Position numbers and translations under genes: made by a program. Positions 2,193-28,707 of a DNA stretch of 64,000 bases are shown here, in pieces; position 1 is the first letter of the stretch; each line of letters begins with the position of its first letter. This DNA is from Candidatus Aenigmatarchaeota archaeon (GTDB lineage Archaea > Aenigmatarchaeota > Aenigmatarchaeia > CG10238-14). The stretch lies in contig JAWBZR010000002.1 of NCBI GenBank assembly GCA_044343545.1, forward strand, positions 19,213 to 83,212. The letters run 5' to 3'. The notes beneath the pieces were generated by a model. It saw only the letters and a list, made by a program, of their open reading frames with translations, searched no databases and was not told the DNA's origin.

Positions 2193-2193
2193 A

Positions 2194-3433: not shown

Positions 3434-3438
3434 AACTT

Positions 3439-3603
3439 TTAAGCAAAAATGCTACTGTTTTCGCTTTGATTTTTTTCGCAATCCAAGCATATCCATTCAT
3501 TCTTTTTCTTTCTCAAACATTTATGACAACCGATTTTCCCGCATCTATCACACTCTCTCATCTCTATGGTTTCGCTGTTGCAATTCAAGCATTTTAGAGT
3601 CAT
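3439..3603 (-). CDS. Small 8-Cys double-zinc-finger protein (54 aa, not in ORF track)
   Basis: MTLKCLNCNSETIEMRECDRCGKIGCHKCLRKKKNEWICLDCEKNQSENSSIFA; four CxxC pairs. Confidence 0.7.
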   Translation of the reverse strand: MTLKCLNCNSETIEMRECDRCGKIGCHKCLRKKKNEWICLDCEKNQSENSSIFA

Positions 3604-3640
3604 CGAATTAAATATTTGGAAAATTACAAATTAATAAAGT

Positions 3641-5047
3641 ATGGGCGAATCAAAGGAATTTGGTTATTCAGACATAGTAAGGAGAAACATAGAAAATACT
3701 GCAAGAGAAGGCAATGTAAATTCAATAAAGGTTGGCATAGGAGAATCCTATTTTGATGCATTTGCGATAAGGGTGATAAACGCGACACCTTTTCAAGTAG
3801 GCATACTTTCTTCCATTCCACAACTATTCGGTCATATTTCAAACATATTTTCTCATAAAGCTATAGAAAGATTTAGAAGTCGAAAAAAAGTGATTTTGAT
3901 TTGTGTTTTAATCAATGCCTTATGCTTTATACCAATATTTTTAAGCGCTTTCATAAAGGGATACGAATTCATCTTCTTGCTCGCTTCGATAACGTTGTAT
4001 TTTACTTCAGAGTTATTCCTTCTTCCAGCTTGGGTCAGCTTGATGGGAGATATCATACCAGATCAAATAAAGGGAATATATTTTGGTGAAAGAAACAAAT
4101 CAATGAAATTGTTCGCATTTGTTTCCATGATAATTGGTGGGTTTATTTTGCAAGTAATTTCCGGTTTAAGTTTGTTGCTTTCTTTTGGCATAATTTTTTT
4201 CATCGCTCTTTTGGCAAGATTAATTTCATTCTATTTGTTTTTAAAAATTTATGAGCCGGAATATGTTTTTGATGAATCATTCAAGTTTGGTTTCATCGAT
4301 TTCGTAAAAAACTTGAAAAAAACAAATTTTGGCATGTTCGTCATTTTTATGGTCACATTCACCTTTTCTTATAGATTAGCCGCACCATATTTTTCTGTTT
4401 ACATGCTTAACTATCTAAAATTTGATTATTGGAAATTTACTCTCATCAATGCGTCAAGCGTGCTTGCAACAATTGTTAGTATGCCCATATGGGGAAAATA
4501 TATAGACGAGTATGGCAATAAAAAGATAATGACATTGACAGCTTTTTGCATCCCACTAATCCCGTTTTTATGGATGCTTTCTAGCAACATCATTTATTTG
4601 TTCTTGGTGGAGTTATTTTCTGGTTTTGTTTGGGCTGGCTTCAACTTGTCGACATTTAATTTTGTATTTTTTTCAACATCGCCAGAAAAAAGACACATAG
4701 CTCAATCATACTATAACGTTCTTTTAGGAATTTCTATGTTTATGGGTAGCATGACGGGAGGTTTGCTGATAGAAAAAGTCAAACTTTTTGAAATACCAAT
4801 ATTCAATGTCTTTGCTGTTTCTACTGCAATGAGATTTTTGACAGCATTCTTGTTTTTGAGAAAAATTGAAGAACCAAAAGAAAAGAAAGAAATAAGCTAT
4901 TCAAAATTACTATTTAGCGCTTCCATCGTGGAAGTGTGGAAATCTTTGCAGAGCACCTTTACTTTCAAAAAGAAAAGAAAAAAATCCTTTTTTGAAAGAC
5001 TTGCCGAAGAATTGGAAGAAATTACAAATGCAGGAGGCAGGATTTGA
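3641..5047 (+). CDS. MFS transporter
   Basis: About 12 hydrophobic segments; MFS loop motifs IERFRSRKK and WGKYIDEYGNKK. Confidence 0.85.
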   Translation: MGESKEFGYSDIVRRNIENTAREGNVNSIKVGIGESYFDAFAIRVINATPFQVGILSSIPQLFGHISNIFSHKAIERFRSRKKVILICVLINALCFIPIFLSAFIKGYEFIFLLASITLYFTSELFLLPAWVSLMGDIIPDQIKGIYFGERNKSMKLFAFVSMIIGGFILQVISGLSLLLSFGIIFFIALLARLISFYLFLKIYEPEYVFDESFKFGFIDFVKNLKKTNFGMFVIFMVTFTFSYRLAAPYFSVYMLNYLKFDYWKFTLINASSVLATIVSMPIWGKYIDEYGNKKIMTLTAFCIPLIPFLWMLSSNIIYLFLVELFSGFVWAGFNLSTFNFVFFSTSPEKRHIAQSYYNVLLGISMFMGSMTGGLLIEKVKLFEIPIFNVFAVSTAMRFLTAFLFLRKIEEPKEKKEISYSKLLFSASIVEVWKSLQSTFTFKKKRKKSFFERLAEELEEITNAGGRI

Positions 5048-5114
5048 ACCTGCGTATCCACTAAGGAACCAGCTCCTAAGGCTGGCGCCATTGACCAGGC
5101 TAGGCGACTCCTGC
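5029..5114 (-). tRNA. tRNA-Leu(UAG)
   Basis: Cloverleaf GCAGGAG...CTCCTGC-A; anticodon arm CCAGC-CTTAGGA-GCTGG; long variable arm; TTCAAAT T-loop; no encoded CCA. Confidence 0.95.
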
Positions 5115-5157
5115 CTTATTAATAAAAATTATCAATCCTTAATAATTTTATGTTTTT

Positions 5158-6057
5158 TTAAGAAGCCAATTTTATCTTGTTCTTCTTAAACTGTTTCATA
5201 ATTTCTTTGAGTAATTCTGATACTATTTCTTCTTTTCTTGAGATATCCACAGTTCTTATCCAAACTTCCAAAGTTATCTTAGTGGCAGTGCAAGATTTTA
5301 CTAATACCTTTGGCATAAAAGGTGTCAAATCCATTCCAGATTCTACTATCTTTGAAAACTTCTCAGCCAGGTATTCTATTCTCGCTATTTTTCCTTTTTC
5401 TATGATGTCATCTAAAATGTTTCTTTTTTTGGGTATGTTAGGAAGCACGTAGGGATGACTTCTGCATACGTCTATTATTATTTTTTCTGCCTTTTCAAGA
5501 TTGGTATCTGCACTTAAATCCAAATTGAAAGATATTTTGACAAAATTACCTTTTGTATAGTTTATGATGTTGGTCGTAACCAATACGGAGTTTGGGACAT
5601 AAACAATAGAACCATCATACCTTCTGAGAACGGTTCTAAATAAAGTCATATCTTTTACTCTTGATATTCCAGGTTGAGGAAAACCGCCAACTTCAACCCA
5701 ATCCCCTATTTTTAATGGCCTTTCGACTGATATTATTATTCCAGCGATGATATTTTGAAAAGTTTGTTGCGTAGACAAACCTATTATTATTGTGGCTATG
5801 CCAGCCGCAGTCCAAACAGTGCTCAAATTAATACCCAAAATTTTGTTTAATATGAAATAAAAACCCAAAAAATAAAATAAATAGTTCGCGAGTCTAGATA
5901 CTGTTTTTGAAAGATTCTTATTGATTTTTTCATCTAAAAATCTTCTCATGAAAAAATAAATCGCATTTCCTATAACAATAACCATTAAAGAAAGAATTAT
6001 TGAAATTATAACCGTTTCAGTTGTTACTGTACCCAATTCGAAGCCGTTCATAAACAC
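5158..6057 (-). CDS. mscS: Small-conductance mechanosensitive channel (MscS family)
   Basis: Three TM helices, then QNIIAGIII..ERPLKIGDWVEV and VYVPNS..INYT. Confidence 0.9.
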   Translation of the reverse strand: MFMNGFELGTVTTETVIISIILSLMVIVIGNAIYFFMRRFLDEKINKNLSKTVSRLANYLFYFLGFYFILNKILGINLSTVWTAAGIATIIIGLSTQQTFQNIIAGIIISVERPLKIGDWVEVGGFPQPGISRVKDMTLFRTVLRRYDGSIVYVPNSVLVTTNIINYTKGNFVKISFNLDLSADTNLEKAEKIIIDVCRSHPYVLPNIPKKRNILDDIIEKGKIARIEYLAEKFSKIVESGMDLTPFMPKVLVKSCTATKITLEVWIRTVDISRKEEIVSELLKEIMKQFKKNKIKLAS

Positions 6058-6167
6058 TTATTATTATTGTTTAGGCCTATTTTAAATAATTTCGTTCTGT
6101 TAGGATCAATTTCGCAGAAAAATTATGTCGTGTTAAATCAAAATAAATGAAAATCTAGAAGGTGGTT

Positions 6168-7790
6168 TTATTTTTGAATTTTATCGCTTAATTTTTTTAT
6201 CTTTTCATCCAACTTCTTTTCAGCTTCCAATCTTTCTAAAGGATAGTCTTTAAAATCGACAAACTTTGTCGCGTACTCCGCTAGTAAGGGATGAACGTCC
6301 CTTACTTTTGATGCAATGGCTTGAGCTATCTTCCTGTAATATTCATGACCTTGAGGGGAGCTTCTCAACTCAGTTAAGTGAGAAATTTCACGCAAATTCA
6401 GTTTAAAATACCATCTTACTTTGAAACCCAATGGAACTATGTATTGTGCTTGTAAAGGCATTTTCTTTCTCACTTTCTCAAAAAAATTCTTCGCAGCCTC
6501 CATTGCTTTCACATATTTTGATTCCAATTTCGCTTCTGTAATGTCTTTTGGTACATCAAAACCATAATCAGTGGTGATGAGTTGTCTTTCTTGTGTAAGC
6601 ATTCTATGTCTTTGCAAGTCCTTGTACGCGCCTAAAGGAGCCAAAATATCAAAAGTATAATAAGTGTTTTCAAAAGCTCTTCCTATTTTTTGTTGCCTAA
6701 CTTTTCTTCTCGATGCATATTCAAAAACAATTTTTTTCTTTTCTTCTAAACTCATATTTTTCACAATTTTTCTCAATTCTTTCAAGCTCATGTCGGTGAA
6801 AGGATATAGCATCGATGCTATAACCTTTTCTTCCGCATCTTGATCATAATCAACAAGCTCAACATAACTTCCATCGTGCTCTTTAGCTTCGAATTTCTTA
6901 CCTATTTTTTCCATTGCTTCTCTTGTTTGCTTAAAATATTCTTGCATAGCCTTTCCATGTTCCATTTTGGCTCTTTTCACGAAAGAAGGTATAACCTTAT
7001 CCAATTCTTCTTGCATCATCAAAGCCAAATTTCTTACTTCGAAAAGCGGAGAAGCATACATCTTGTTCAGTAGATGCTCAAAAGCTCTTCCATTTCCAAA
7101 CAGGCCAACATTTGTGAGAGTGGACGCCGGTAAAAGTTGTCTTAGAGTGTCGCATACTTTCGCTCTTATTGTTGCCTGATATGCTCTATCAGAAACATCT
7201 TTTGGTTGTGGATATTTTTTTTGCATGAAATCCGACATTTTTGGTATTAATTCGGAATATGTATCGAACAAGAAATCCATCGTTTCTTCGTACATTTCTC
7301 CAAATTCAGAGCTCATCAATTCGGGATCTCTATAATACTTGTACTTTCCATCTTCCTTTTGGTCGAAAAACACGTATCTCGTGGATTTTTCAAGCGGAGA
7401 TATGCCTATTCTATTATCTTCTAGCATCTTTGCCGCTATTAATTGTGAAACATCTTCGCATGCTACATGAACACCTGCCAATTCAGCTACGGAATCATCA
7501 CCAAAACCTATCAAAACTCTCTCATAAAATTCTTCAGCTTTTTGTGTGGCAATAAACTTTTCAAAATGTTTTCTTTCGTCCATTGAAACAATTTCTTTGA
7601 AATTCATTTCAGGATTTAAAATGAATTCTTCAAGCAAAACTCTTCTTAAACTCTTTGGCGATCTACTATATCTTGCAAACAAAGCACCCTTGACAACTTC
7701 CGGCAAGTTTATTAACACGAATACCGGCTTGTCCAAGTTTGTTAAAAAAGGTTGCAATATTTTTCTTTCTTCTTCGGTAAAATTTTCCAT
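6168..7790 (-). CDS. thyX: FAD-dependent thymidylate synthase, tandem two-domain form
   Basis: GALFARYSRS, GDDSVAEL, EKSTRY, LQRHR, ELRS.PQGH motifs; 540 aa fits a duplicated ThyX fold. Confidence 0.9.
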   Translation of the reverse strand: MENFTEEERKILQPFLTNLDKPVFVLINLPEVVKGALFARYSRSPKSLRRVLLEEFILNPEMNFKEIVSMDERKHFEKFIATQKAEEFYERVLIGFGDDSVAELAGVHVACEDVSQLIAAKMLEDNRIGISPLEKSTRYVFFDQKEDGKYKYYRDPELMSSEFGEMYEETMDFLFDTYSELIPKMSDFMQKKYPQPKDVSDRAYQATIRAKVCDTLRQLLPASTLTNVGLFGNGRAFEHLLNKMYASPLFEVRNLALMMQEELDKVIPSFVKRAKMEHGKAMQEYFKQTREAMEKIGKKFEAKEHDGSYVELVDYDQDAEEKVIASMLYPFTDMSLKELRKIVKNMSLEEKKKIVFEYASRRKVRQQKIGRAFENTYYTFDILAPLGAYKDLQRHRMLTQERQLITTDYGFDVPKDITEAKLESKYVKAMEAAKNFFEKVRKKMPLQAQYIVPLGFKVRWYFKLNLREISHLTELRSSPQGHEYYRKIAQAIASKVRDVHPLLAEYATKFVDFKDYPLERLEAEKKLDEKIKKLSDKIQK

Positions 7791-9110
7791 CTATATCATC
7801 ACATCCTCATATATTGGAAAATTTTCGCAAAGATCTATAACTTCTTTTCTTATTTCTTTTATTGCTTCGTTCCTTTCAATTTCTTTTCTGAATTTATTTA
7901 TTAACAAATCCTTATTTTCTTTTGAAAATTCATATTTCATCGCGAGCCGAATCACTTTAATCATGTAATCTGCTATTCTTTCCATTTCAGATTCCTTCAT
8001 ACCTCTTGTAGTTAATGCAGGCGTTCCACACCTTATGCCACTAGGATAAAAGGGAGATGCATCGTTTGGTATAGTATTTTTGTTGACGATTATTCCAGCT
8101 TTATCCAATGCTTCTTGAGCGTACATGCCTTTACCATAGCCGAAAGGAGTAAGGTCTATTAAAAGTAAATGTGTATCTGTTCCGCCAGAAACGAGTTTTA
8201 TATCCATTTTTATAAACTCTTCAGCCAACTTTTTACAGTTTTTAACTATTTGTTTCGCATATTCTTTGAATTCAGGTTGAGATGCTTCATGCAATGCAAC
8301 TGCTATAGCAGCAGTAACATTGTCATGAGGTCCGCCTTGAAGTCCAGGAAAAACAGCTTTATCTATTTTTTCAGGCAAGCTTTCATCTTTTTCTAAACCT
8401 TTTCTTGTAACCATTATCATCGCTCCCCTCGGTCCTCTAAGAGTTTTGTGAGTAGTTGTTGTTATAACATGTGCATATTTTGATGGGCTAGGATGAACCT
8501 TACCAACTATTAAACCTGCTATGTGTGAAATATCTGCAACTAAATAAGCATCAACATCATCGGCAATTTCAGCGAATCTCTTGAAATCGATGATTCTTGG
8601 ATAAGCCGTGAAACCACACCATATTAATTTAGGTTTGTATTTTTTTGCAAGTTTCTCCATTTCATCAAAATCTATGTAACCATTTTCATTTAAATGATAG
8701 TGGACTGAATTAAACAACATACCTGAAAAACTTGTTTTCCATCCATGAGTTAAGTGGCCACCATGAGTCATGTCCAAACCCATTATTGTGTCGCCTGGTT
8801 TGCAAAGAGCCAAATACACTGCGAAGTTTGCCGGGCTACCAGAATAAGGTTGAACATTCACATGCTCTACCTTGAAAAGTTTTTTCGCTCTTTTTATGGC
8901 CAACCTTTCTATTTCATCGATGTATTGGTTTCCGCCATAATATCTTTTTCCAGGATAACCTTCTGAATATTTGTTTGTTAAAACAGAACCCAAAGCTTTC
9001 AGGACATTGACGCTCGCATAATTTTCTGATGGTATCATCACAAGTGATTTTTGTTGCCTTTCTAAATCTTTGCGAATTAAATTAAAAATTTCTTCGTCGA
9101 TAAAAGGCAT
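7791..9110 (-). CDS. glyA: Serine hydroxymethyltransferase
   Basis: PSENY, NKYSEGYPGKRYYGG, GGHLTHG, TTTTHKTLRGPRG (PLP Lys), FPGLQGGP. Confidence 0.97.
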   Translation of the reverse strand: MPFIDEEIFNLIRKDLERQQKSLVMIPSENYASVNVLKALGSVLTNKYSEGYPGKRYYGGNQYIDEIERLAIKRAKKLFKVEHVNVQPYSGSPANFAVYLALCKPGDTIMGLDMTHGGHLTHGWKTSFSGMLFNSVHYHLNENGYIDFDEMEKLAKKYKPKLIWCGFTAYPRIIDFKRFAEIADDVDAYLVADISHIAGLIVGKVHPSPSKYAHVITTTTHKTLRGPRGAMIMVTRKGLEKDESLPEKIDKAVFPGLQGGPHDNVTAAIAVALHEASQPEFKEYAKQIVKNCKKLAEEFIKMDIKLVSGGTDTHLLLIDLTPFGYGKGMYAQEALDKAGIIVNKNTIPNDASPFYPSGIRCGTPALTTRGMKESEMERIADYMIKVIRLAMKYEFSKENKDLLINKFRKEIERNEAIKEIRKEVIDLCENFPIYEDVMI

Positions 9111-14054: not shown

Positions 14055-15335
14055 TTATTTCTTTAAAGGAACAACATCTAAAACAATTCCTGCCGCGACT
14101 GTTTGACCCATGTCTCTAATAGCGAATCTTGCCAATTGTGGGAAATCTGATTGTTTTTCAACAACCATCGGTTTTGTTGGCACCACTCTTACTCTTGCAG
14201 CGTCACCCGTTTTTATGAAATCTGGATGTTCCTGAACAACGGCACCCGTTTTTGGATCTATTTTTGCAATTATTTCCTCAATCTTGCAAGCTATGCTGGC
14301 TGTACCTAAATGGAAGACGGGGGTGTAGCCCGCTGTGATGACTGTTGGATGGTTTAAAACAATAATTTGCGCTATGAATTCTTTTGCGACTGTTGGCGGA
14401 TTGCTTACATGACCGCAAACATCTCCTCTTTTAACATCATTCTTGCTAATGCCTCTTACATTGAAACCAATATTATCTCCTGGCCTTGCTTCCGGTTGTT
14501 GTTTGTGAAACATTTCTATGGATTTTACTTCACCCGTAGCTCCAGAGGGCATAAAAATAACTTTGTCATTCACTTTCAAAATACCTGTTTCCACCCTACC
14601 AACAGGTACAGTTCCTACACCAGTGATGCTGTAAACATCTTGTATCGGTATTCTTAAAGGCTTGTCGATTGGTTGCTCGGGTGGTTTTACTGTTGCATCC
14701 ATTGCTTCAACTAGTGTAGGTCCTTTATACCAAGGCATTTTATCCGTCTTGTTCACAACATTATCTCCTTGATAAGCTGAAACCGGGACAAACGGAATTT
14801 CATCCACTTTATAACCAACACTTTGCAAAAGTTTCTTTACTTCAGCTACAATTTCTTGATATCTCTTTTCGTCATAATTTACAGTATCCATTTTGTTAAC
14901 AGCTACAATGACTTGATTAACACCCAAAACTTTTATCAAGTAAGTGTGCTCTCTTGTCTGCTCTTGCACGCCTTCTCCTTGTTTGGCAGAAACAACAAGA
15001 ATTGCAGCGTCAGCCTGAGATGCACCGGTAATCATGTTTTTAACGAAATCTCTATGACCCGGAGCATCGATGATAGTATAATAATATTTTTTACTTTCAA
15101 ACGGCGTGTGCATGATATCAATGGTAACACCTCTCTCTCTTTCCTCTTTTAGTCTATCCATAAGAAAGGCAAATTCAAATGTTTCTTTTTTCAATTCCTT
15201 AGCCAACTCTTTCAATTTTCTTAATTGATCCTCTCTTATAGCACCTGAATCGTATAAAAGTCTACCTATCAATGTAGATTTTCCCGCATCAACGTGTCCT
15301 GCAGTCATGATGTTAATTTTTGGCAAATCGGCCAT
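14055..15335 (-). CDS. tuf: Translation elongation factor EF-1 alpha
   Basis: [50 protein letters not shown] upstream. Confidence 0.98.
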
Positions 15336-15382: not shown

Positions 15383-17581
15383 TCATTCAAATTTTGGAAT
15401 TTCAAGTGGCAAACCTTTTCTTTGCCTGATTTTCTTTATTGTTTGCTCTTGCAAATCTTTAGGAATTCTTTCGAAAACAACATCAATTAAACTGTAAAAT
15501 CCTTTCCCTCCCGTCGCAGATTTCAAGGCAGAGTTGAAGCCGAACATTTCAGAAACAGGCATCTTACATTTTATTATTGTTACACCCCTTTCTTCATCCA
15601 TTTCCAAAATTTGACCCCTTCTGTTTTGTATCTCTTTTATAGCACCACCCATCGTTTCTGTAGGTGTATCAATTCTTATTATTTGCTTTGGCTCAAGTAA
15701 AACAGGTTCAGCCTTCATCATAGCAGCCATGATAGCATGACTAAAAGCGGGTAATATTTGTCCAGGTCCTCTATGGATGGCATCTTCGTGTAGTTCGGCA
15801 TTTATCAAGCTCACTTTTATTCCTGTACATGGCTCTCTTGCTTGAGGGCCATCATCCATGACATTTCTAAAAGCTTCCTTGAGCATTTCTTCTACTTCAT
15901 TCAAATATTGAATACCTTTTGTTTCGTCAACAAGAATGCTTTTGTTATATATTAACCAAATATTTTTAACTTCGGCATGAGAGAGTCCGGCATCAATTAA
16001 CTTTTTTTGAACATCCAAATGCTTTTTCTTAAAATCTACTTCAGGAGGTATGTCACCATTGTTTATCAATTCCTCTATTTTTGGATTTATTGGCTCAACT
16101 GTGATATAAAATTTATTGTGTTTGTTCGGCGATTTTCCCTCGACTATTGGTGATTTTGATGTTACAGTCTCTCTGTATACAACTATTGGCGGTGTCGTCG
16201 TGAATTCTATTCCAGCTTCCTTTAACTTTCTTTCAACCTTTGCATCCAAGTGCAACTCGCCCAAGCCAGAAACCAAATATTCGCCCGTTTCCTCATCTAT
16301 TTTAACTTTAATAGTCGTGTCCTCTCTTTCCAGCTTTTTGAGAAATGCTGCTAATTTTGCCAAATCACCAGGATTTTTCGGTTCTATAGCTTTTGTAACC
16401 ACAGGTTCAAATATGTGAGTGATTTGCTCAAATGGCTCAATGATATGGTTAGGTCTGCAAATTGTTTCTCCTGAAAATGCTTCACCCAAGCCAACTATGC
16501 CGACTATGTTACCTGCAACGACTTCGTCTACTTGCAACCTATGCGGACCTTTGTATATAGAAACCTGTTGAATCCTTTGAGTTTTTTTCTGTCCAACCAA
16601 ATAAACTTCATCACCAACTTTTAAAGTACCAGAAAATATCCTTGCCGTGGCAACGTAACCGGCATGAGGGTCCGGCATCAGTTTTGTGACTACAGCAGCT
16701 AGCACACCGTTCGGGTTTACGTTTAACATATCTTTGCCAGCTTCACTCTCAATATCACCTTTCCATATTTTCGGTATTCTATACTTTTGCGCCTCGATAG
16801 GAGAAGGCAAATGAGTAATTATCATGTCCAAAACCACTTTATGTAAAGGAGCCATTTTCGCCAACTCATCTTCTTTTTCATTCAACGTATACTCTATTAT
16901 TTGTTTGAAGGTAATTCCGTATTTTTTCATGAAGGGAACAGAAATACCCCACTTTTTCAGAGCAGAGCCAAAAGCAACTGAGCCATTTTCTACGTTTACT
17001 AACCACTTGCTTTTAAATTCATCCTCTGCATATTTTTGTATCAAATAATTAACTTCTTGAATTATTTTCGTGAATCTTTCCATCATTTGCTCCGGAGTAA
17101 GTTTTAACTCCTTTATCAACCTATCAGTTTTATTGATGAATAAAACTGGTTTTACTCTTTCTCTCAAAGATTGCCTAATAACGGTTTCTGTTTGTGGCAT
17201 CACGCTTTCTACCGCATCAACAAGCACTATGGCACCATCAACCGCTCTCATAGCTCTTGTAACATCGCCTCCGAAATCTACATGACCTGGAGTGTCTATC
17301 AGGTTGATAAGATAATCTTGGTTGTTGTATTCGTGAATCATGCTTGCATTTGCAGCCCAAATCGTTATTCCTCTTTCTTGCTCTTGTGGATCAAAATCCA
17401 TAAATAACTGTCTTCCTGCAAGTTTTTCCGATATCATGCCAGCTCCTGCTAACAAGTTATCAGAAAATGTTGTTTTTCCATGATCTATGTGAGCACATGT
17501 CCCGATATTTCTTATATTTTGAGGTTTTTTCATAACTTCTAATATTCTTTCTACCATATCTTTTTCTGCCAAGACATTCAC
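15383..17581 (-). CDS. fusA: Translation elongation factor EF-2
   Basis: AHIDHGKTT, DTPGHVDF, NKTD, GLGELHL; diphthamide loop HEDAIHRGPGQ intact. Confidence 0.98.
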   Translation of the reverse strand: MNVLAEKDMVERILEVMKKPQNIRNIGTCAHIDHGKTTFSDNLLAGAGMISEKLAGRQLFMDFDPQEQERGITIWAANASMIHEYNNQDYLINLIDTPGHVDFGGDVTRAMRAVDGAIVLVDAVESVMPQTETVIRQSLRERVKPVLFINKTDRLIKELKLTPEQMMERFTKIIQEVNYLIQKYAEDEFKSKWLVNVENGSVAFGSALKKWGISVPFMKKYGITFKQIIEYTLNEKEDELAKMAPLHKVVLDMIITHLPSPIEAQKYRIPKIWKGDIESEAGKDMLNVNPNGVLAAVVTKLMPDPHAGYVATARIFSGTLKVGDEVYLVGQKKTQRIQQVSIYKGPHRLQVDEVVAGNIVGIVGLGEAFSGETICRPNHIIEPFEQITHIFEPVVTKAIEPKNPGDLAKLAAFLKKLEREDTTIKVKIDEETGEYLVSGLGELHLDAKVERKLKEAGIEFTTTPPIVVYRETVTSKSPIVEGKSPNKHNKFYITVEPINPKIEELINNGDIPPEVDFKKKHLDVQKKLIDAGLSHAEVKNIWLIYNKSILVDETKGIQYLNEVEEMLKEAFRNVMDDGPQAREPCTGIKVSLINAELHEDAIHRGPGQILPAFSHAIMAAMMKAEPVLLEPKQIIRIDTPTETMGGAIKEIQNRRGQILEMDEERGVTIIKCKMPVSEMFGFNSALKSATGGKGFYSLIDVVFERIPKDLQEQTIKKIRQRKGLPLEIPKFE

Positions 17582-18180
17582 CTGGAGGCATCAGCTTCCT
17601 TTTCAATTCTTTCCTTTTCCTTTATTGCTTCGGATTTAGAAGCATCATTTTTGTAAGCATAGTAAATTTCATCAGCCAATTCTTCAGCCATGCTTCTTTT
17701 CTTTCCAAAAGCTTTCTTATAAGCAGCGCGAACCATCATTGTTAAAGCCAAATCAACCCTCCTTTGAGGCGAGGTCACAACCGCTTTTCTAACCATTATA
17801 CCTCCGGCTTGATAAGAGGCTAATTCTTCTCGAAGCGCGGCGTTTTCTATTGCTGTCACGAAAACCTTGATTGGATTTTCGTTTGTTCTTTTTTCCAAAA
17901 TTTCAAATGTTTTTTTAATTATCTTGTATACGGTTTGCGTTTTTCCAGTATTTCTTCCAGACGTCAAAAGATGCTTTTTTCCTTTATGTCCAGGAACCAT
18001 CAATTTATTTGCAAGCCTTTCTACTATGTTCATTTGTGATTTATAAAATTGCTTTTTTGAAAATCTACCTCCACTTCTTGGAATAACAGAAGGTTTCAAG
18101 CAAATATACATTTTTAATCCAGGATCTTTTACTTCTATTCCTTCAAACGACCATTTGTTGAAGAGTTTTAATTCTGCCAT
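17578..18180 (-). CDS. rpsG: 30S ribosomal protein uS7
   Basis: LFNKW, IVERLANKLM, ENPIKV, SPQRRVDLAL; position in str cluster. Confidence 0.96.
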   Translation of the reverse strand: MAELKLFNKWSFEGIEVKDPGLKMYICLKPSVIPRSGGRFSKKQFYKSQMNIVERLANKLMVPGHKGKKHLLTSGRNTGKTQTVYKIIKKTFEILEKRTNENPIKVFVTAIENAALREELASYQAGGIMVRKAVVTSPQRRVDLALTMMVRAAYKKAFGKKRSMAEELADEIYYAYKNDASKSEAIKEKERIEKEADASR

Positions 18181-18185
18181 AAAAA

Positions 18186-18611
18186 CTACCTTGATGGTTT
18201 TTGTTTTTTACCTTTCAATATTTCTTTTAAAGATACACCGTTAACCTTGACGACTTGATATTTTAAACCCCATTGAGACCCAACAGGCCCACCTTGAGAA
18301 CCGCCAACACCCTCCAACAAAACTTCGTCATGTTCGTTGATGTGATCTATAGCATGATTACCAGGAACAAAAGCGGTAACTTGAATGTTGTTTTTTATTA
18401 ATTGCACTCTCACAGCCTTTATCAAACCAGAAGACGGTTGTTTTTGCTCTACAGTTCTTTTAGCCAAAACTATTCCTCTGGCTTGAGGTGCACCCTCGAA
18501 TGGCTTTTTCTTGTAAAGTTGCAACTGCCTCCTCATGTATCTTACATCCTTCCATCTAAACTTTTGCCTATTCGAGCGCAACTTTCTAGCTGCAAATTCG
18601 CCTCTTGCCAT
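18186..18611 (-). CDS. rpsL: 30S ribosomal protein uS12
   Basis: [33 protein letters not shown]; position between nusA and S7. Confidence 0.95.
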
Positions 18612-18612
18612 C

Positions 18613-19029
18613 CTACTTCAACCTCACATCATCTATATCATGTAATCGTTTAAGTATTTCTTTTAATATTTTAAACTTTTGCTTGTTTCTTCCAAAAACT
18701 TTGTTTTTATCTCTTTTATTTATTTTTATTTCCGCGATATTTTTACCATCCTCTTCTATTATTGTCGCTTCTACGTCAGCCGCGATGATATTCTTTATAA
18801 AATCATTAATATCCGAAGAATATTCGAACACTTTCACGTGTTTGCCTAATAACTTTTCAACATATTTTATCAAAGATCCACCTTTGCCTATGGCTAGTCC
18901 TGCTTTGCCTTCTTCAACAATATAATAAACAGTATTGTCGTTTTCGAAGCAATCCACAACCCTAACATTGGTTATGTTTTCAAACAAATTCAAGAATCTT
19001 ATAGTACTTGTGTTTAACTCCCTCTTCAT
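18613..19029 (-). CDS. nusA: Archaeal NusA-like KH-domain transcription factor
   Basis: [18 protein letters not shown] motif; conserved synteny. Confidence 0.93.
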
Positions 19030-19301
19030 TTTTTATCGCTCTCTTTGATTGCTAGTATGCTTACTGAAAAAGGCTTTCCGCAGACAAGACCCAAGTTAAC
19101 GTTATCCCCTTCAAACTCCTTTACTTCTACTTTGGCAATTTTTGCGTTGTGAAGGATTTCTTGTTTTTTATCTTCAGGTAAGTTATTTGCAATTACAACC
19201 ATATCTATTTTACCACTCTTTAAATTTTTCATAACTCTATTATAACCTAAAATGACTTGTTTGCTTTTTACCTTGTCTTGGATGAGTTTTACTAAATTCA
19301 T
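19026..19301 (-). CDS. rpl30e: 50S ribosomal protein eL30
   Basis: [22 protein letters not shown]. Confidence 0.95.
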
Positions 19302-20425
19302 TCTTCACCAACCTTGCCTATTAATTCGAACATACCAGTGCCTACCGGTACTTGTTGGTTGATCATGACATTATCAAATATTCCTTCAAATTCGTCCACT
19401 TCATTTCTTACCGAAGCTCTAACAAGATGCTTTATCGTTTCTTCGAAACCTGCTCTTGAAAGAACCGCTGATTGCGTACCAGCAACACCATATCTTCCTA
19501 CAGGCCTCACTTCTCCAGTAAAACACATTATATCCGCAACCAATGTGATATGCCTTTCATCAACATTCAACCCCTGCTGTTTCAAGGTATTGTTTATTTC
19601 CCTTATGAGAATAGTTCTTGCAGCTTCTATACCTAAAATCTTTTCAACTTCGTGAAAATTGTTTGAGTATGTTCTTGTGAAATCCACTTCTTCAAGCTGA
19701 AATATTTTTTCTAAGTTTGATCCAAGTGTTTTTACAACCCAATCGTTTCCTTCTTTTACAACAACAGCATTTTTCACATTTTCCACACCACTTACATACG
19801 AGGCGAGAACCTTTCTTTTCAATTTTTCAAGTTCTTTTATCGATATGTCTTGCTTGGGCTCTATGGTGATGGAGTTAGTGTGCGGTTTGACTTGATATCC
19901 TTTCAAAAGTTTTTGCAACCTTTCCACTATTTCATCCATTTCCTCTTTTGTAATCTTGCCAAAGTTTATTTTTATTTTTTTGTTGGTAAGGTCAGTTGTA
20001 ACTTCAGTTGCAAAGTATTTTACCTTTTTTTCTTTGATTTTTTTCGAAAATTCCTCAGCCGCTTCTTTTGTATTGTGTTTTGGTTTTAGATATATAGTCA
20101 TCATCGGAGTAGTAGGTTCTTTCCTCGCATCGAATATTTCTATTAATCTTGGCAAACCTAAAGTGACTTGAATGCCGGCCGAAGCTGCAAAGTGATATGT
20201 ACGCATTGTCATTTGCGTCGCAGGTTCGGAAATCGATTGAGCCACAAGGATTCCTATAGCTTCTCCAGGTTGGAACATATTTTTGTAATATTCTCTCTTT
20301 ACTTCTTCTATCAATTTTATTTGCTGCTCTTCATTAAGCTTTCTTTGAGTGATGACCCTTTCCACTTCTTCCTTGAGATTGGCAGGAAAATCATCCAAAT
20401 AATCTTCTAGCAATTTTTTCGACAT
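19298..20425 (-). CDS. rpoA2: RNA polymerase subunit A'' (Rpo1C)
   Basis: [51 protein letters not shown]. Confidence 0.97.
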
Positions 20426-23400
20426 TTATATCACCCTTTTGTATTCTAGACGGGTCTAACCCGTCTTCAGCGGGAACAAATTGGATAATTTTTTTCATCG
20501 AATCTCTTACAGTTCCATCATATTCTACCTTTAAATCTTTTAATGCACCTATCAATCTTCTTTCCAAGTAACCACTGTGTCTTGTCTTTAAAGATTTATC
20601 CATAAGACCTTCTCTGCTATTCATTGCATCGAAGAAAAATTCAAAAGGCGTTAATCCTGTTTTATAACCATGTCTAACAAAACCTTTGGATTCCAAACTT
20701 ATATCATTTCTTTCAAAATGAGTGAATGTTCTCTTATAATAACCTATTCTTATTCTTTCTCCTCTCAAAGTTTCTTGACCTAAACAAGCGATGCATTGAA
20801 CCATGTTAACAAGACTGCCTCTTGCTCCGCTTTTGGCCATTATATATACAGAATTTTCTTGAATGTTTTTCGCAACTAAGTTTGTGATTTCATTAAGCGT
20901 GTCCGCTAATTTTATTTTTATCAAAGTTTCCAGGGTTTCTCTCGGCGTCTTACCGACAACTCCTTTTATGTTACCTTTTTTGAATTCCTTAATCAATTCA
21001 TTGACTTCATCCTTTACTTTGTCAAGTTGATTGTTAATTTTTTCAATAATTTTTGGAGATACATCATAATCTGATATGGCTATGCTAAATCCATACCTTG
21101 TTAAAAATTCGAGCGAAAGTTTAGTGATATTGAATAAAAACTTCTTAGCATACTCACCTCCATAAACTTTTTCTATTTCATCAAGTATTTTGCCTTTGAA
21201 AGCACCAACACCACTTTCATCAATAAAACCTTCAAGCTCACCATTTTTTATGACAATTTTTGTATCGCCTTTAGTATATTCAAAGTTGAAATCTTTTGGC
21301 AAGAACAAGCTGAATATTTCTTGACCCGTAAATTCCTTCTTTTCCGGTACCTCTATTTCAAGATCACATGCTTTTACAAGCGATATCACATCCTTTCTTG
21401 GTAATTTCATCTTTGTCGTCAAAATATAAAGCCCGGTTATATGATCATTTATAGCACCTATTATTACACTGCTAAACCTCGGACTTCTAAACTGTGTGGA
21501 TACACGAGTGAGCAAGTTTGTTTCAACTTGAGCCTCTTTTGTTTGAGGTATGTGCAAATTCATTTCGTCTCCGTCAAAATCAGCATTATATGGTGGAGCA
21601 ACCGTTAAATTAAGTCTAAAAGTATTCCACGGCATAACTCTAACTCTATGTCCCATCATACTCATTCTATGCAAAGACGGCTGCCTGTTAAAGATGGACC
21701 AATCACCATCTTCTATTTGTTTTTCAACAATATAGCCAGGTTCCAACTCTTTTATTATATCAGCCTTATTTTGCTCGGTAACTTTTTTTCTCCTTCCATC
21801 AGGTCTATTCACATAGTTTATTGTCGGCCATTCAGGATATCTTTCTATCATTTGTTTTATTTTTTCGATGTTTCTCTCGTTAACAACAACAGGTATTGTT
21901 AATTCTTTCGCTATTGATAGTGGAACGCCAACTTCATCTATATCCAAGAACGGGTCAGGACTTATGACAGTCCTTGCAGAATAGTTAACTCTTTTACCTA
22001 TGAGGTTACCTCTAAACCTACCTTCTTTCGTCTTCAATCTTTGTGCGAGTGTCTTTAATATTCTTCCAGATCTATGCCTTGCTGGAGGCACGCCACTAAT
22101 TTCATTATTCATATAAGTTGCAACATGGTATTGCAACAATTCCCACAAATCTTGAATAATAAAGTCAGGAGCACCCAAGTCAATATTTTCTCTCAATCTC
22201 TTGTTTATTCTCACAATATCAACAAGTTTATGAGTTAGGTCATCTTCAGATCTTTCACCCGTTTCCAAGGTTATGGAAGGTCTCACCGTGACTGGTGGTA
22301 TTGGTAAGATAGTGAGCACGAAAACTTCTGGTCTCACACCTTTTATGCCAAGATATTGCAATTCTGAATCAGGTATTTTTTCCAATCTTTCTCTTATTTG
22401 CACAGGCGTTAAAACATCTTCATCTTCTTGATAAGTCGTTGGTTTAATATACTTTATTTTCTTTTGTTTTTCGTTGCAATAAGGACATGTAGATTTTACT
22501 AACGTTTTTAGCTTCTTTAATGATTTTTTCTTTTTGAGTTTTTCAGCATCTTCTGGTGTAATTAAAACCTTTCCACATTTTCTGCAAGTATATCTCAATA
22601 TATTGTAAATAAGTTTTGCATAGTTTACGTGGATTACGGGCTTTGTTAACTCTAAATGACCAAAATGACCTCTACATTCACCAACCGTGCCACCACACGT
22701 TCTACATCTTAAACCAGGATCTATAACGCCTAATCTAGGATCCATTAAACCTCCTTCTATCGGGTAACCTTCTTGATCATAAAGTTCTGTTTTGCTAATC
22801 TTGGATGCGGACATCTTCCTTATCATTTCAGGTGTCAATACGCTGAATGTTATTTTATCAATTATATTGAGATCTTCGTTGATTGTAAGTTTCGGATATA
22901 TAACCATACTTTTTAGCTCGTCCAATAGCAACTTGAAGGCGTAAGACATATCGACATCTATGATTTTTGAGCCTCCACACATGGGGCAGAATTTTTTGTT
23001 TTTCACCCTATCGTTTATCGCTTCTATTCCACATTCTTTGCATATTGGTATTGAAATCTTGTCAGAATCGAACCTTTCTTTAAGCAAAAGGGAGGCGCCA
23101 TGCGCAATTAAGCAGTCTTTTTCCATTTCCCCTAATCTCAATCCACCCATTTTTGATTTTCCTTCTGTTGGTTGTTTCGTCAACAATGCTACAGGACCTT
23201 TAGATCTAGCGTACATTTTATTTGAAACCAGGTGGTCAAGTTTTTGATAAAATATACTTCCTATGAGTATCTTGTTCATCAATTTTTGTCCGGTTCTACC
23301 GTCGAACATAACTTCTTTACCATCATCGTCATAACCAAACTTCTTTAGCATTTCCCTTATTTGCTTTTCTTCTGGAGGATGAAATGGAGGGCTATATATC

Positions 23401-24674
23401 GGTTCGCCAGAAAGAGCGGCAACTTTAGCAGAAATAATTTCTAGAAGTTGACCAATAGTCATTCTTGATGGAATGCCGTGAGGATTAAACACCAAGTCAG
23501 GTACTATGCCTTCTTCGGTGAATGGCAAATCTTCTTCACCTATTATCAATCCAACTACGCCTTTTTGTCCGTGTCTACTCGCAAATTTGTCTCCCACTTC
23601 GGGAATCTTTAAATCTCTTATAACTACCTTCACAAGTTTGTTACCTTCAGAACTTTCTGTGATGAATACCCTATCAACTATCGCATTTTCGGAATGTTTC
23701 AATCTTACGGAAGTTTCTCTTATGTTCTCAAGGCTTGTTGTGAATTGATCTAATCCGCCTAAAAATCTCAAAGGTGAAGTTTTTCCTATCAAAACATCAT
23801 CTTTCTTCACATTAGTTTCCGGATTAACTATGCCATCTTCTGGTAAATGTTTATAAGCATCTTCACCTGCATATCCCCTTATTCCTGGTTGCGGTATTCC
23901 TATTACATCTTCTTGTCCACCTAAATATCTCTTTTCTTCAGCTTCATAAACCCTAAACATGTATGACCAGAACAAACCTCTTTCTATTGAGGATTTGTTT
24001 AGCACAATGGCATCTTCCATGTTGTATCCTAAAAACGACATGACAGCAATGGTAACGTTACATCCACCAGGATGCTCTTTATCGTTGATAATTTCGTTCA
24101 TATGTGTCTTTACCAGCGGAACTTGAGGGTAAATCATTATGTTTGATTTCGTGTCAACTCTTAGAGGATAGTTTGAAGCATATATTCCTATGGATTGTCC
24201 TATCATCTTACCTCCGAAATTAACCCTATCACCTCTGTTAAATTCTGCAAAAGGAACAAGAGAAGTTGCTATGCCAAATATGATAGTGGGATCTAGCTCC
24301 AAATGCGTGTGTTTGGGTGTAAGATCTTTTGGTGTTAACGCAACAAGAGCATTTTCTTCTTCTGTCGCATCCAAGTATTCTATAACACCTTGTTTTATTA
24401 GGTCACTCCACTTAATTTTTCCTGCTTCCAAGGCTTTTATATGCTCTTCCGTTAATTTAGGTTTTCCCTTTTCTACAACTATTAATGGCCTTCTCGCCCT
24501 TCCAGGTTCAGTAGAAATCATGACTATATCAAAATGATCCAAGTAAGAGACGTTAAGCTGATTCGAAAGCAAACCTTTCCTTCTCTTTTCTCTCAACATT
24601 TCTACAAATTTTTTTGCATCCTTTACCTTACCGACATATTTTCCGTCCAAAAACACATCAACCATTTTTCTCAA
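20391..24674 (-). CDS. Fused RNA polymerase subunits B' (Rpo2C) and A' (Rpo1N); likely start ATG at 24665
   Basis: First ~600 aa are B' ([28 protein letters not shown], zinc finger); remainder is A' ([31 protein letters not shown], catalytic [15 protein letters not shown]); no stop between them. Confidence 0.93.
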
Positions 24675-26172
24675 CCTCTTTCAACACAGTATCCTCTATT
24701 ATTTTGAACTCTTTTTCAGTCACTCCAGAAGTAACTTGGGTCATTATCGCTAGATACTTTCTCAACCCAATCGTTGCACCTTCTGGTGTTTGTGACGGGT
24801 CAATCTTGCCCCATTGTGTTGGATGCAAAATTCTTGCTTCGAAATGTTCTTGAGTGGATGTAAGGGGTGACAATACATTTCTCATGTGTGAAAGTGTCTT
24901 TACAAAACTACCTCTTTCCAACCTTTGTGACACGCCAGTCCTACCACCAACCCAAGAGCCTATTGCTATCGCTGAATTTACTTGGTTCGTTAAAACACTC
25001 GATTCGACGATGGATTGCAAGGGCGGAAACCTCCCTCTTTTAGTAAGTTTTTGATAATTGTATGTTATTCTCGTTATAAGACCCCATTTACCAAGGAGTA
25101 TCGACCTAAACAATATTTCCAGCAGATCTCCGGACAATCTCAATCTTTTGTTAGAATAATGATCCAAATCATCTTTTGGTGTTTTTTTGAGATGATATTT
25201 TATAATCCTTTCACACGCTTTTATCAAGTAGAAAGCTTTTGTTAAACGATCCTTTTTTTCTTGACCTAAATGAGGAAGCAAATATTTGTCTAGTAACTTG
25301 TTGACCCTATCTTGTCTATATTCTTTTTGAACAATTTTCAAGAAATCAGCAATCTCTTCCATAGCCTCCTTGCTTGTAGCTGCTTGTGTCTCAAACAAGT
25401 TTGGATAAAACTCTTGCTGAACTTCAGGATCTTCGGATAAGCTCATAATTATGTCTCTATCCGTTTCTAAACCCAAAGCACGAATTAATATTATTATCGG
25501 CATTTTGTTAACATTCGCAAAACTTATTCTTATTATGCCGTCACCTTTCCTTTCTATTATGTGTCTTTGTATATATCCATCTTTTTCAGAATGAATTCTT
25601 GCCGTTTCCGTCACGTTGGGCGTGGATGACTTTTCTACTATTATTTTGTTTGGTGCTATTTCTTCTATTAACACAAGCACTCTTTCCGTTCCGTTTATGA
25701 TAAAATAACCGCCAGGGTCATCAGGGTCTTCGCCTGCCTTTATCAATTCGTCTCTATCCATTTTGGATAAAGGACAAATTTTTGATTTTAACATGATGGG
25801 AAGATCACCAAAGTTAACCATTACCGGTTCGCTTTCTATGTCGTTTAGGGTTGGTGTCATTTCAAGATACATTGGCGCAGAATACGTGAGGTTTCTTATC
25901 CTCGCTTCCAATGGCAATATAGGTCTTTCCGAGCCATCAGCTTCTTTTATCCAAGGGCCCCATCTATCATTTCCCAAAGGCTTGCCTATCTTAAATTTTC
26001 CTAATTTTATTCTAAAATCTCCCAAGTCAGGAACTTCTGGTCTTATTTCTTTTATTTGTTTTATTATTGCAGGAATCCTGTTTTCAATGAAATCATTGTA
26101 TGAATCTATTTGAAATTTAACCAAACCTTCTTCCTTGACGAATGATTTTAACATCGTCATATATTCTTTCAT
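24658..26172 (-). CDS. rpoB2: RNA polymerase subunit B'' (Rpo2N)
   Basis: QIDSYNDF, EARIRNLTYSAP, DPGGYFIINGTERV, NKRLRL, ARILHPTQWG, TPEG. Confidence 0.97.
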   Translation of the reverse strand: MKEYMTMLKSFVKEEGLVKFQIDSYNDFIENRIPAIIKQIKEIRPEVPDLGDFRIKLGKFKIGKPLGNDRWGPWIKEADGSERPILPLEARIRNLTYSAPMYLEMTPTLNDIESEPVMVNFGDLPIMLKSKICPLSKMDRDELIKAGEDPDDPGGYFIINGTERVLVLIEEIAPNKIIVEKSSTPNVTETARIHSEKDGYIQRHIIERKGDGIIRISFANVNKMPIIILIRALGLETDRDIIMSLSEDPEVQQEFYPNLFETQAATSKEAMEEIADFLKIVQKEYRQDRVNKLLDKYLLPHLGQEKKDRLTKAFYLIKACERIIKYHLKKTPKDDLDHYSNKRLRLSGDLLEILFRSILLGKWGLITRITYNYQKLTKRGRFPPLQSIVESSVLTNQVNSAIAIGSWVGGRTGVSQRLERGSFVKTLSHMRNVLSPLTSTQEHFEARILHPTQWGKIDPSQTPEGATIGLRKYLAIMTQVTSGVTEKEFKIIEDTVLKEVEKNG

Positions 26173-26174: not shown

Positions 26175-26429
26175 CTATTCCTCCACAACGATTCTATAAT
26201 ACACAACTTCTTTTGCAATGCTACTCTTTCTTATTATTTTTATTAAATCTCCGGGTTTCGCTCCTAGCGCCTTCACGACAGGGTCAGTTGATTTTATTTG
26301 GGGAAGTTGATTCAATTTTGTTATCTTATATTTTTCCAAGATTTTTTGCTTTTCTTCTTCAGAAACAATGTAATGTTTTGGCACCAATTCATGCTCTAAG
26401 ATGTTAATATTGGTTTCTTCTTTCAACAC
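26175..26429 (-). CDS. rpoH: RNA polymerase subunit H (Rpo5)
   Basis: [40 protein letters not shown]. Confidence 0.96.
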
Positions 26430-27309: not shown

Positions 27310-28707
27310 CTATTTCACTCTTTTGGAGAAGGTGACGATTTTTTCAGCAATCTTGTTTATGACACTCTTCCCTGATTTATAACTAAAGTAAGCTTTTGGC
27401 AACCTTACCTTTCCATCAATATTCATCGTTGGCTTTATTCTGTACGACAAAACTCTATCTTCTTTCGGTTTAAGTTTGTCTATTCTCCATATTAAATTTG
27501 TACCCTTTGGCGTGACTTTGATTTCAGGTTTCAACGTGTCGAATTCTTTGACAACGATGAATACAGGAGGAACAATATCTTTAACAACAACGTTGTCTAT
27601 TTCTCTTAAAGAATTATTTTTTATGTGCAGTGTCACGAGATTTTCTTTTTCCAAATCTAATTTTTCAGAATATTTTTTCATCAATGTTGGTTTGTGTAAG
27701 AGGGAAAGAATAAATGTCATGAAAAGTAGGAACAAAAATATAACAAAAGCAGCGCTACCAAATCTCAAAGAATATTGTAAGTTTACAGATTGATTGGGCT
27801 TGACATCACTAAAACTCCACGTATAAGTTATTCTATTTTCTTTTTCTTCGCTTTTTTCTGGCTCAATTTCAGGATAAAAAAAGTATTTGGAAAATTTCGG
27901 CATGGTTTCCGTGATAATTATATTTTGAGGATAATTTCCCTTGTTCGTTACATTTATTGTGAATGTCACTTCCAACAAAGTTTTATGTATCTTTTTTTCT
28001 TTTTCTATCTCGCTATATTTTTTTATCGTGAAAAAACTTGATTTAGAATGAATAGGATTTCCAAATTCATCATACATAAAAACTTGAACTTTGTATAAGC
28101 CAGGTTCATATGTATTTTTTATTTCAAACGGTATCGACAAGGTTTTTGTTGTCAAAGGTTGCAGAATCAACTCTTCATCCAAAACCGCTATTTGCTCTTC
28201 ATCCTTTAATATTTTAGTTTTAACCATCACGTGTTTGCCCTGCGTTTTGTCCAAGTTAACTAACATTGGTTTTATGATTAGTGTTTCTTTCGGCGAAAAA
28301 ACATCTTGATTTAACGTCAAGTCAGAAAAATACGTTCCCGTTCTTCTTCTTATATTCAATATTATGTCCAAGCTTGCTATTTTGGTTGTTTGTGTTGATT
28401 TTGCTTTGATACTAAAAACTACATTTCCCACATCTGCATCTATCGGCGGCTCTATGACAAATTTTATAATTTCTTCTTCGTTCGGATCTAAACTTACAAA
28501 ATATTTTTCTAAACTTATCCAGCTACTGGGCCAAATTCCTATGTAAAAAGTATCTCTTTGTCCATCATCGTTGATTATTTTGAACTTGACTGTTGTTTTT
28601 TCTAAAGTATAAACAGTTTCTGGATAATCCACCATTTCTATTCTTAATGACGATGCAAAGGGGAATAGTAAAAGCAAAAAAACAAGGACGAATTTCACCA
28701 GTTTCAT
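27310..28707 (-). CDS. Surface/membrane protein with repeated Ig-like (DUF11/CARDB-like) domains
   Basis: Signal peptide, beta-sandwich repeats (INVTNKGN, VTLHIKNN..VVVKDIVP), internal TM helix. Confidence 0.65.
   Translation of the reverse strand: MKLVKFVLVFLLLLFPFASSLRIEMVDYPETVYTLEKTTVKFKIINDDGQRDTFYIGIWPSSWISLEKYFVSLDPNEEEIIKFVIEPPIDADVGNVVFSIKAKSTQTTKIASLDIILNIRRRTGTYFSDLTLNQDVFSPKETLIIKPMLVNLDKTQGKHVMVKTKILKDEEQIAVLDEELILQPLTTKTLSIPFEIKNTYEPGLYKVQVFMYDEFGNPIHSKSSFFTIKKYSEIEKEKKIHKTLLEVTFTINVTNKGNYPQNIIITETMPKFSKYFFYPEIEPEKSEEKENRITYTWSFSDVKPNQSVNLQYSLRFGSAAFVIFLFLLFMTFILSLLHKPTLMKKYSEKLDLEKENLVTLHIKNNSLREIDNVVVKDIVPPVFIVVKEFDTLKPEIKVTPKGTNLIWRIDKLKPKEDRVLSYRIKPTMNIDGKVRLPKAYFSYKSGKSVINKIAEKIVTFSKRVK

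Follow-up and report, generated by a model that had tools for sequence, protein, structure and literature searches.

A natural in-frame fusion of the RNA polymerase genes rpoB' and rpoA' in a Candidatus Aenigmatarchaeota archaeon

The RNA polymerase operon of a Candidatus Aenigmatarchaeota archaeon, a tiny member of the DPANN, was analysed in a 64,000-nucleotide stretch of contig JAWBZR010000002.1 (assembly GCA_044343545.1, positions 19,213 to 83,212), hereafter called the window, to whose first letter all coordinates refer. We found that rpoB' (rpo2C) and rpoA' (rpo1N) are, at the gene level, naturally fused in frame into one open reading frame (ORF). To our knowledge, nearly all cells make the two largest polymerase subunits as separate chains and, beyond a few bacterial lineages, such fusions are known mainly as laboratory constructs. 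The evidence makes it highly probable that this is a natural B'-A' fusion whose sole copy encodes one chain of about 161 kDa, that it is ancestral in the clade formed by genera g1, g4 and g8, to which the window belongs, and that the fused and split states form a near-neutral toggle. From the gene content, a polymerase made of B'', B'A', A'' and the small subunits is predicted. The fused gene and its parts are as follows.

20391..24674, reverse strand: fused rpoB'-rpoA' ORF, stop codon at 20391-20393 (Pfam, NCBIfam)
22872..24665, reverse strand: B' (Rpo2C) moiety, residues 4-601 (Pfam Rpb2_4 to Rpb2_7; TIGR03670)
22863..22877, reverse strand: junction, residues 600-604 (E-D-L-N-I), with Leu602 (CTC) at the ancestral Met position
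20394..22871, reverse strand: A' (Rpo1N) moiety, residues 602-1427 (Pfam Rpb1_1 to Rpb1_5; NF006336, TIGR02390)
21567..21587, reverse strand: NADFDGD motif, residues 1030-1036 (translation)

The ORF comprises 1427 codons when counted from a TTG and is translated without an internal stop; its probable start is the ATG at 24665 (1424 aa, 161.4 kDa), since the public record of the same protein (P0004) has 1424 aa. Pfam domains Rpb2_4, 5, 6 and 7 were matched at residues 7-597, followed by Rpb1_1 to Rpb1_5 at residues 604-1405; with Rpb2_7 ending at residue 597 and Rpb1_1 beginning at residue 604, one ORF links the second-largest subunit, by its C-terminus, to the N-terminus of the largest. Equivalog cut-offs were passed for B' by TIGR03670 rpoB_arch (857.9 bits, cut-off 811; residues 7-600, profile positions 1-597 of 599) and for A', at residues 603-1424, by NF006336 (1130.3 bits, cut-off 819) and TIGR02390 (1108.5 bits, cut-off 1042.55). 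The cysteines of the C-terminal clamp and zinc ribbon of B' are kept (CKECG at residues 545-549, CPMCGG at residues 563-568), with positions C6, C9 and C24 of alignment A2 invariant in 52 sequences, as are the N-terminal zinc motifs of A' (CRTCGG, CRKCG and CPYC, at residues 657-733). Rpb2 domain 6 and Rpb1 domain 2 house the two double-psi barrels, and the two domains, the second carrying the catalytic NADFDGD, lie on the one predicted chain. A preliminary description of the window, made from its letters, had claimed a 1427-aa ORF with B' motifs preceding A' motifs and both catalytic halves on one chain, and ORF calling, Pfam and NCBIfam agree with it in this. In the whole assembly (G000; 651 kb, 22 contigs, 90% complete) Rpb2_6 was found once, in the fused ORF. 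Public records label near-identical proteins of Candidatus Aenigmatarchaeota archaeon "DNA-directed RNA polymerase subunit A'", and the fused proteins in general go simply by "subunit A'" or "subunit B", names by which public annotation hides the fusion.

At the join, B' does not end as a stand-alone chain after its clamp strand, the frame continuing into A' without a stop, and A' has neither a start codon nor a ribosome-binding site of its own, CTC (Leu) standing at the former Met and no Shine-Dalgarno-like run being present. Translation of the window reproduced the junction string reported earlier as well as its lack of a stop. Contigs of four public runs (Logan contigs) were compared with positions 22400-23400. 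Those of run X2, which belongs to a different study from X1, the possible source run of the window, covered 22400-23112 with 0 differences, the junction at 22863-22877 included, and a contig of run X3 covered 22672-22888; neither an indel nor a stop, either of which would have spoken for separate genes, was present at the junction in the contigs of independent origin, although minority variants may persist, as this check rests on assembled contigs. Assembly error is excluded as the origin of the fusion, because the contig from the second study has an identical junction and because relatives share the fusion with diverged junction codons.

Among the 41 nearest genomes (G000 counted), 21 were stop-free over the junction (1426-1468 codons), one had an in-frame TAG, 17 were split into a B' of about 600 aa and an A' of about 830-860 aa, and two gave no match. 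All three same-genus genomes with a match (G001, G003 and G004) were fused, so that the case of close relatives with split genes and a near-identical junction, which would have counted against a natural fusion, was not encountered, and the four genomes of the sister genera g4 and g8 were fused with diverged junction codons. When a sample of 370 species-representative genomes of the phylum was searched, 344 matched, 107 of them by a single collinear match over the junction; 63 of these 107 were stop-free and 44 were in frame with one or more stops. The "open frame" column of this search runs through stops, and rows with a single stop or with two matches (G301, G065) proved to be split and were not counted as fused. 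Single ORFs were confirmed for the window and for 52 fetched genomes, 53 of the 63 without a stop; the other ten were not fetched.

ORFs were called directly in 120 fetched loci and the window (121 loci), a sample that takes in nearly all fused and some split genomes, so that the following proportions are not population estimates. The layout B''/B'/A'/A'' was found in 51 of the 121 loci, B''/B'A'/A'' in 42, B/A'/A'' in 16, BA'/A'' (BA' being one ORF of about 1916-1941 aa) in 11, and B/A'A'' in one. Fusion of the whole of B (B'' and B') to A' was observed at loci L095, L097-L099, L104, L106-L108 and L127-L129, some of them cut by contig ends, in genomes G047, G048, G060, G045, G044, G042, G194, G170, G051, G052 and G304. 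At L105 (G227) an unsplit B of 1102 aa (1605-4911 of the oriented locus) is followed by one TAG and then by an in-frame ORF of 1188 aa (4914-8478), which carries A' and A'' and is thus an A'-A'' fusion inside the phylum. The A'' gene was unusual at L026, L038, L055, L064, L107, L108 and L130: either the A'' match covered only residues 1-74, opening an ORF of some 500 aa that extends past the end of the locus, or A'' lay inside an ORF of 754-786 aa. A'' may thus have been extended at these loci or carry an insertion, possibly an intein.

A protein search returned at least 120 matches, nearly all of them fused and either about 1420-1460 aa or about 1910-1930 aa long. In the ESM Atlas, the cluster of the query (204 members) was the only archaeal cluster with this architecture, the next being Campylobacterota beta-beta'. 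Of the 150 best-ranked representatives at 50% identity, only P0079 (Aenigmatarchaeota), P0134 and P0202 span the junction; fused proteins may hide behind unfused cluster representatives, so that this search gives no estimate of absence outside the phylum. P0134 (2214 aa, on one Logan contig of 18.7 kb) holds Rpb2_1, 3, 6 and 7 followed by Rpb1_1, 2, 3 and 5, that is, B, A' and A'' on a single chain; it is 37% identical to the window over the junction, and a word-index search found no relatives of this singleton. P0202 (1665 aa, JGI name RPB2, 10 contigs) consists of a complete B/Rpb2 followed by Rpb1_1 and part of Rpb1_2, with 36% identity to the window over the junction.

The gene boundary in split relatives consists of the B' stop, a spacer of 0-4 nt and the A' ATG. 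Over all 68 split loci, the gap between B' stop and A' start was -8 to +5 nt in 56, the genes overlapped in 16 (often as ATGA) and were in frame in 20; the gap is so narrow that substitution of the stop codon or an indel of 1-2 nt suffices for fusion. At L116 (G301), L119 (G173) and L126 (G065), a spacer of 264-314 nt separates B' (or B) from A', as opposed to the usual few nt. TAA, TGA and TAG terminate B' at 30, 28 and 10 of the split loci, respectively; stop-codon recoding in the in-frame split relatives was considered and rejected, all three stop codons occurring there. Fused forms are only about 1-4 residues longer, from the conserved YPK to the conserved I-x-F anchor, than the two split termini summed. 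In the window's clade the junction codons vary at synonymous and non-synonymous sites with the frame kept, the linker length is constant, and the old A' start is still ATG in g4 and g8 (...DEEMNTIDKI...), with Leu codons in g1, CTC in the window. The missing A' Met, which the preliminary description had held against a simple loss of the stop, is therefore real in the window but a secondary change. The linkers of different fused clades differ (EEMNT, DTNTL, DKNLG, EEGKV, NREDNMV, ENLMKV, SGEEMRV), and this diversity, with the old Met retained in several, fits independent fusion events.

In split relatives B' closes with the codons AAG GAG GAx, which create a GGAGG-type motif 4-9 nt ahead of the A' ATG. 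Of the 68 split loci, 23 have a Shine-Dalgarno-like run of at least 5 nt at the junction and 52 one of at least 4 nt; of the 53 fused loci, 0 and 15 do, respectively. Across 17 phylogenetically independent pairs, motif and fusion took opposite directions in about 7-9 and a common direction in 0-0.4 (median p 0.016 and 0.008), a comparison that was devised after the sequences had been viewed and counts as supporting evidence only.

Trees were computed from concatenated B' and A' alignments of the 121 loci, with 25 columns dropped on each side of the junction and 1380 columns kept. The minimum number of changes between the fused and split states was 19 with FastTree (starred branches force 19; shuffled labels gave a mean of 39.6), 18 with quick IQ-TREE under LG+G4 and all columns (starred branches force 17), and 16 with quick IQ-TREE and every third column; one long row, L111, was unstable. 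The state thus changes at least 16-19 times among the 121 loci, gains and losses not being separable because the trees are unrooted and the sample is enriched in fused loci. Both states occur inside the single genera g9, g20 and g22. The g1+g4+g8 clade was fused in 8 of 8 rows with support 100; g5 and g10, its closest outgroups, are split, as is most of family f1. These splits, together with the ATG that g4 and g8 keep at the old A' start, indicate that the fusion probably arose in the common ancestor of g1, g4 and g8. The fused/split state is homoplastic over the phylum and not a clean lineage marker, though it defines this clade; the earlier suggestion that the layout may mark a lineage holds for the clade and fails phylum-wide.

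The structural setting of the join was examined with a 267-aa junction segment, whose top match among solved structures was 3qqc_A (E 1.2e-66; query 82-262 to chain 3-184), in one uninterrupted alignment over the joint with an aligned junction string that includes VIRPKLNLSEGGKVIGSIEFGIL. 3QQC is an engineered Pyrococcus furiosus clamp made of B 1053-1115, A' 3-318 and A'' 334-371 with short Gly/Ala/Ser linkers, and this construct was soluble, bound Spt4/5 and was crystallised, according to the relevant passages of Martinez-Rucobo et al. 2011 (PMC3094117). An AlphaFold2 model of the clamp fragment (residues 540-925, with 52 fused sequences as input) reached a pLDDT of 77 and a pTM of 0.77, with pLDDT 88-92 at the join. 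In this model the join forms a beta-hairpin, its two strands spanning model residues 53-60 and 65-73 and its 4-residue turn, E-D-L-N, residues 61-64. The top structural match of the model was again 3qqc_A (Z 36.9, rmsd 2.4 A over 333 residues, model range 1-359), and native Rpo1N chains align with the model only from residue 61-64 onward. In the model, then, a short turn joins the C-terminal strand of B to the N-terminal strand of A' and leaves the clamp fold undisturbed, as in 3QQC.

We propose that the strand that ends B and the strand that opens A' would be neighbours in the clamp core even before fusion, and that the fusion would be tolerated because these strands adjoin and a turn of 3-4 residues (E-D-L-N) closes the hairpin with the fold unchanged. 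In the ancestor of g1, g4 and g8, a small mutation at the boundary may have eliminated the B' stop and set the A' start in the frame of B'; the Shine-Dalgarno-like motif that had served A' would have decayed later, and in g1 the Met codon too. Over the phylum the same boundary has been fused or re-split repeatedly, which speaks for a mutation-driven toggle, and the change between the two states appears to be nearly neutral. In the fused form the two catalytic halves would necessarily be synthesised 1:1 and be assembled while tethered. We infer that one polypeptide is made and functions in the enzyme, for which there is indirect support in that the gene is the only copy in the genome and is conserved in the eight genomes of the clade.

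Several points weigh against this explanation. No RNA run is among the public runs listed for the stretch, and all genomes compared are metagenome assemblies. The in-frame ATG kept in the sister genera could permit some internal initiation at A'. The trees were built, by quick methods and unrooted, from the same two genes whose boundary is scored, and the loci placed on them are the enriched sample described above. Besides having been devised after the fact, the Shine-Dalgarno comparison concerns a motif that shares sequence with the Lys-Glu-Glu codons at the B' tail, and changes in the protein linker could account for its loss. AlphaFold2 may recall 3QQC from its training, which makes the hairpin model not independent of that structure, and a larger AlphaFold2 model (residues 130-1060), used solely for local confidence at the join and replaced by the clamp-fragment model, was poor (pLDDT 62, pTM 0.42; Foldseek matches with an rmsd of about 21-22 A).

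Retention of the fusion over deep divergence (in g1+g4+g8, down to about 77% identity, in most of f5 and in the B-A' clade of f8), the constancy of linker length within g1+g4+g8 and the label of hot springs metagenome borne by all seven listed public runs that contain the stretch, wholly or partly, would fit a fusion that is adaptive in reduced, possibly thermophilic symbionts through stoichiometry, clamp assembly or enzyme stability. Such an advantage would be compatible with the explanation preferred here, but we consider it rather unlikely in view of the many state changes, the genera that contain both states and, as far as seen, the common habitats of split and fused relatives.

Considerably less credible is that the ORF is fused and separate subunits are made all the same, by internal initiation of A' near the junction, by programmed frameshifting or termination where B' ends, or by proteolysis of the linker. 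Sister genera do retain an in-frame ATG at the former A' start, and a +1 shift in the junction codons reaches a TAA within few codons; in the window, however, CTC is not a start codon, and the next in-frame start codons lie 9-10 codons on (GTA-TTG, residues 611-612) and 14 codons on (ATG), inside the first strand and helix, which are conserved. The longer Shine-Dalgarno-like run is absent from every one of the 53 fused loci, a B' that lacks a stop cannot terminate by itself, no slippery motif was seen, although no search was aimed at one, and in the model the 3-4-residue turn is packed in the hairpin. Finally, hardly any credence can be given to a miscalled base or indel that erased a real stop between truly separate B' and A' genes: the window does derive from a metagenome assembly, only one or two bases separate the fused from the split state in split relatives, and the broken B' frames of L061 and L067 show that errors or pseudogenes occur in such assemblies, but the contig of the other study is identical, the 7 other g1/g4/g8 genomes are fused in frame with differing codons at and around the join, 63 of the 370 species genomes have no stop there, and decay of the Met codon and of the Shine-Dalgarno-like motif takes time. 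At L061 (G101) B' lies in two frames (residues 4-463 and 454-600), as it does at L067 (G121; residues 3-461 and 477-601), owing to frameshift errors or pseudogenes in those assemblies.

Beyond a natural fusion with a near-neutral toggle, it is possible, if doubtful, that polymerase boundaries in the Aenigmatarchaeota are in continual flux, that the fused state alters how the enzyme is made, and that selection keeps the fusion in some clades. The means would be synthesis at an obligatory 1:1 ratio, the disappearance of translational coupling signals and a clamp that forms during translation. Tentatively, the five layouts and the repeated switching of the B'/A' joint (at least 16-19 times) might then be viewed as a natural experiment on the boundaries of the catalytic subunits; if true, the phylum would offer a tractable system for asking why cellular polymerases keep their catalytic halves on separate chains.

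By analogy, the gene is best regarded as the archaeal counterpart of the bacterial beta-beta' fusions, which likewise connect the second-largest subunit through its C-terminus with the N-terminus of the largest, in the same gene order and from adjacent or overlapping genes. Natural beta-beta' (rpoB-rpoC) fusions occur in Helicobacteraceae and Wolbachia, according to a passage of PMC7483510 that cites Lane & Darst 2010 and Zakharova et al. 1999. They join full-length beta and beta' (profiles of about 2840-2890 positions), whereas the window joins the B' and A' halves only, and its protein scored 331 bits against NF007172 (cut-off 5372) and 323.6 bits against NF011417 (cut-off 4632), as an analogue and not a member of these families. 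Unlike the bacterial fusions, moreover, the fused state of the Aenigmatarchaeota flips many times in one phylum. No archaeal fusion model in NCBIfam matched the window protein, only the separate B' and A' models passing their cut-offs. The 3QQC construct (rClamp) has the same joint, from the C-terminus of B to the N-terminus of A' through a very short linker, but it is assembled from laboratory clamp fragments with Gly/Ala/Ser linkers and a second joint to A'', and is neither a whole subunit nor a natural gene. An engineered fused rpoBC serves to express a Mycobacterium tuberculosis RNA polymerase that is purifiable and usable, according to the preprint 10.64898/2026.04.06.716786; its largest subunits are tethered like those of the window, but it is bacterial, artificial and full-length.

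Da Cunha et al. 2017 (PMC5484517), in the relevant parts, regard the splitting and fusing of large subunits as rare and mention only the A'/A'' split and, for Pacearchaeota, a secondary fusion of A' with A''. These known archaeal variants (B''/B' split, A'/A'' split, Pacearchaeota A'-A'') concern the same genes and likewise move subunit boundaries, but as presented there they stay within one subunit and are rare, whereas the B'-A' fusion joins two different subunits and is frequent. The whole-B-A' fusions of other Aenigmatarchaeota (one ORF of about 1911-1941 aa) share the B'/A' junction, but with B unsplit. No description of an archaeal B'-A' or B-A' fusion was found in the open-access full-text literature, supplements aside, in keeping with the unfamiliarity of the layout remarked on in the preliminary description, nor was one found in the portions consulted of PMC5484517, 10.64898/2026.06.17.729505, PMC6355029, PMC11237513 and PMC7414124. 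Of these, the preprint on B'' insertions of Aenigmarchaea (10.64898/2026.06.17.729505) makes no mention of a fusion in those portions, and the main text of the archaeal fusion/fission survey PMC11237513 contains "RNA polymerase" 0 times, although its supplementary tables could list the family. The archaeal B'-A' fusion is thus apparently undescribed in the searched literature, and its unusual aspect is its frequency and reversibility within one phylum. The joint between the C-terminus of B and the N-terminus of A' would be a naturally permissive site, and these proteins could serve as natural templates for single-chain archaeal RNA polymerase constructs. Subunit number would not be stable in the archaeal enzyme, which matters since splits and fusions serve as rare-event phylogenetic markers, and caution is advisable for pipelines that treat RpoB and RpoA as separate marker genes.

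The surroundings of the fused gene follow the order of a standard archaeal operon, rpoH-B''-B'A'-A''-L30e-NusA-S12-S7-EF2-EF1a (Pfam), with these members in addition to the fused gene:

26175..26429, reverse strand: rpoH (Rpo5), first gene of the operon (Pfam RNA_pol_Rpb5_C, E 1e-31)
24658..26172, reverse strand: rpoB'' (Rpo2N), separate, 504 aa (Pfam Rpb2_1, Rpb2_2, Rpb2_3)
19298..20425, reverse strand: rpoA'' (Rpo1C), separate, 375 aa (Pfam Rpb1_5, positions 66-264)
19026-19301, reverse strand: L30e (Pfam)
18613-19029, reverse strand: NusA-like KH protein (Pfam)
18186-18611, reverse strand: S12 (Pfam)
17578-18180, reverse strand: S7 (Pfam)
15383-17581, reverse strand: EF-2 (Pfam)
14055-15335, reverse strand: EF-1alpha (Pfam)

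B'' and A'' are accordingly encoded by ORFs of their own, as had been claimed from the letters. The last 8 nt of B'' overlap the ATG start of the fused gene, and A'' overlaps its 3' end by 35 nt. At these retained boundaries GAGGT precedes the ATG of the fused gene and GGTGAT that of A''; the B'/A' junction has no such run. Loss of the assembly platform was considered as a driver of the fusion and rejected as far as tested, Rpo3/D-like and Rpo10/N genes being present in G000 (Rpo11 and Rpo12 were not searched). In another genome, G355, the operon is broken: B' and A' are not adjacent, contig C23 carrying them on opposite strands at a distance of about 27 kb. Upstream of the operon in the window, a 465-aa ORF at 27310-28707 (reverse strand) carries a DUF11 repeat domain.

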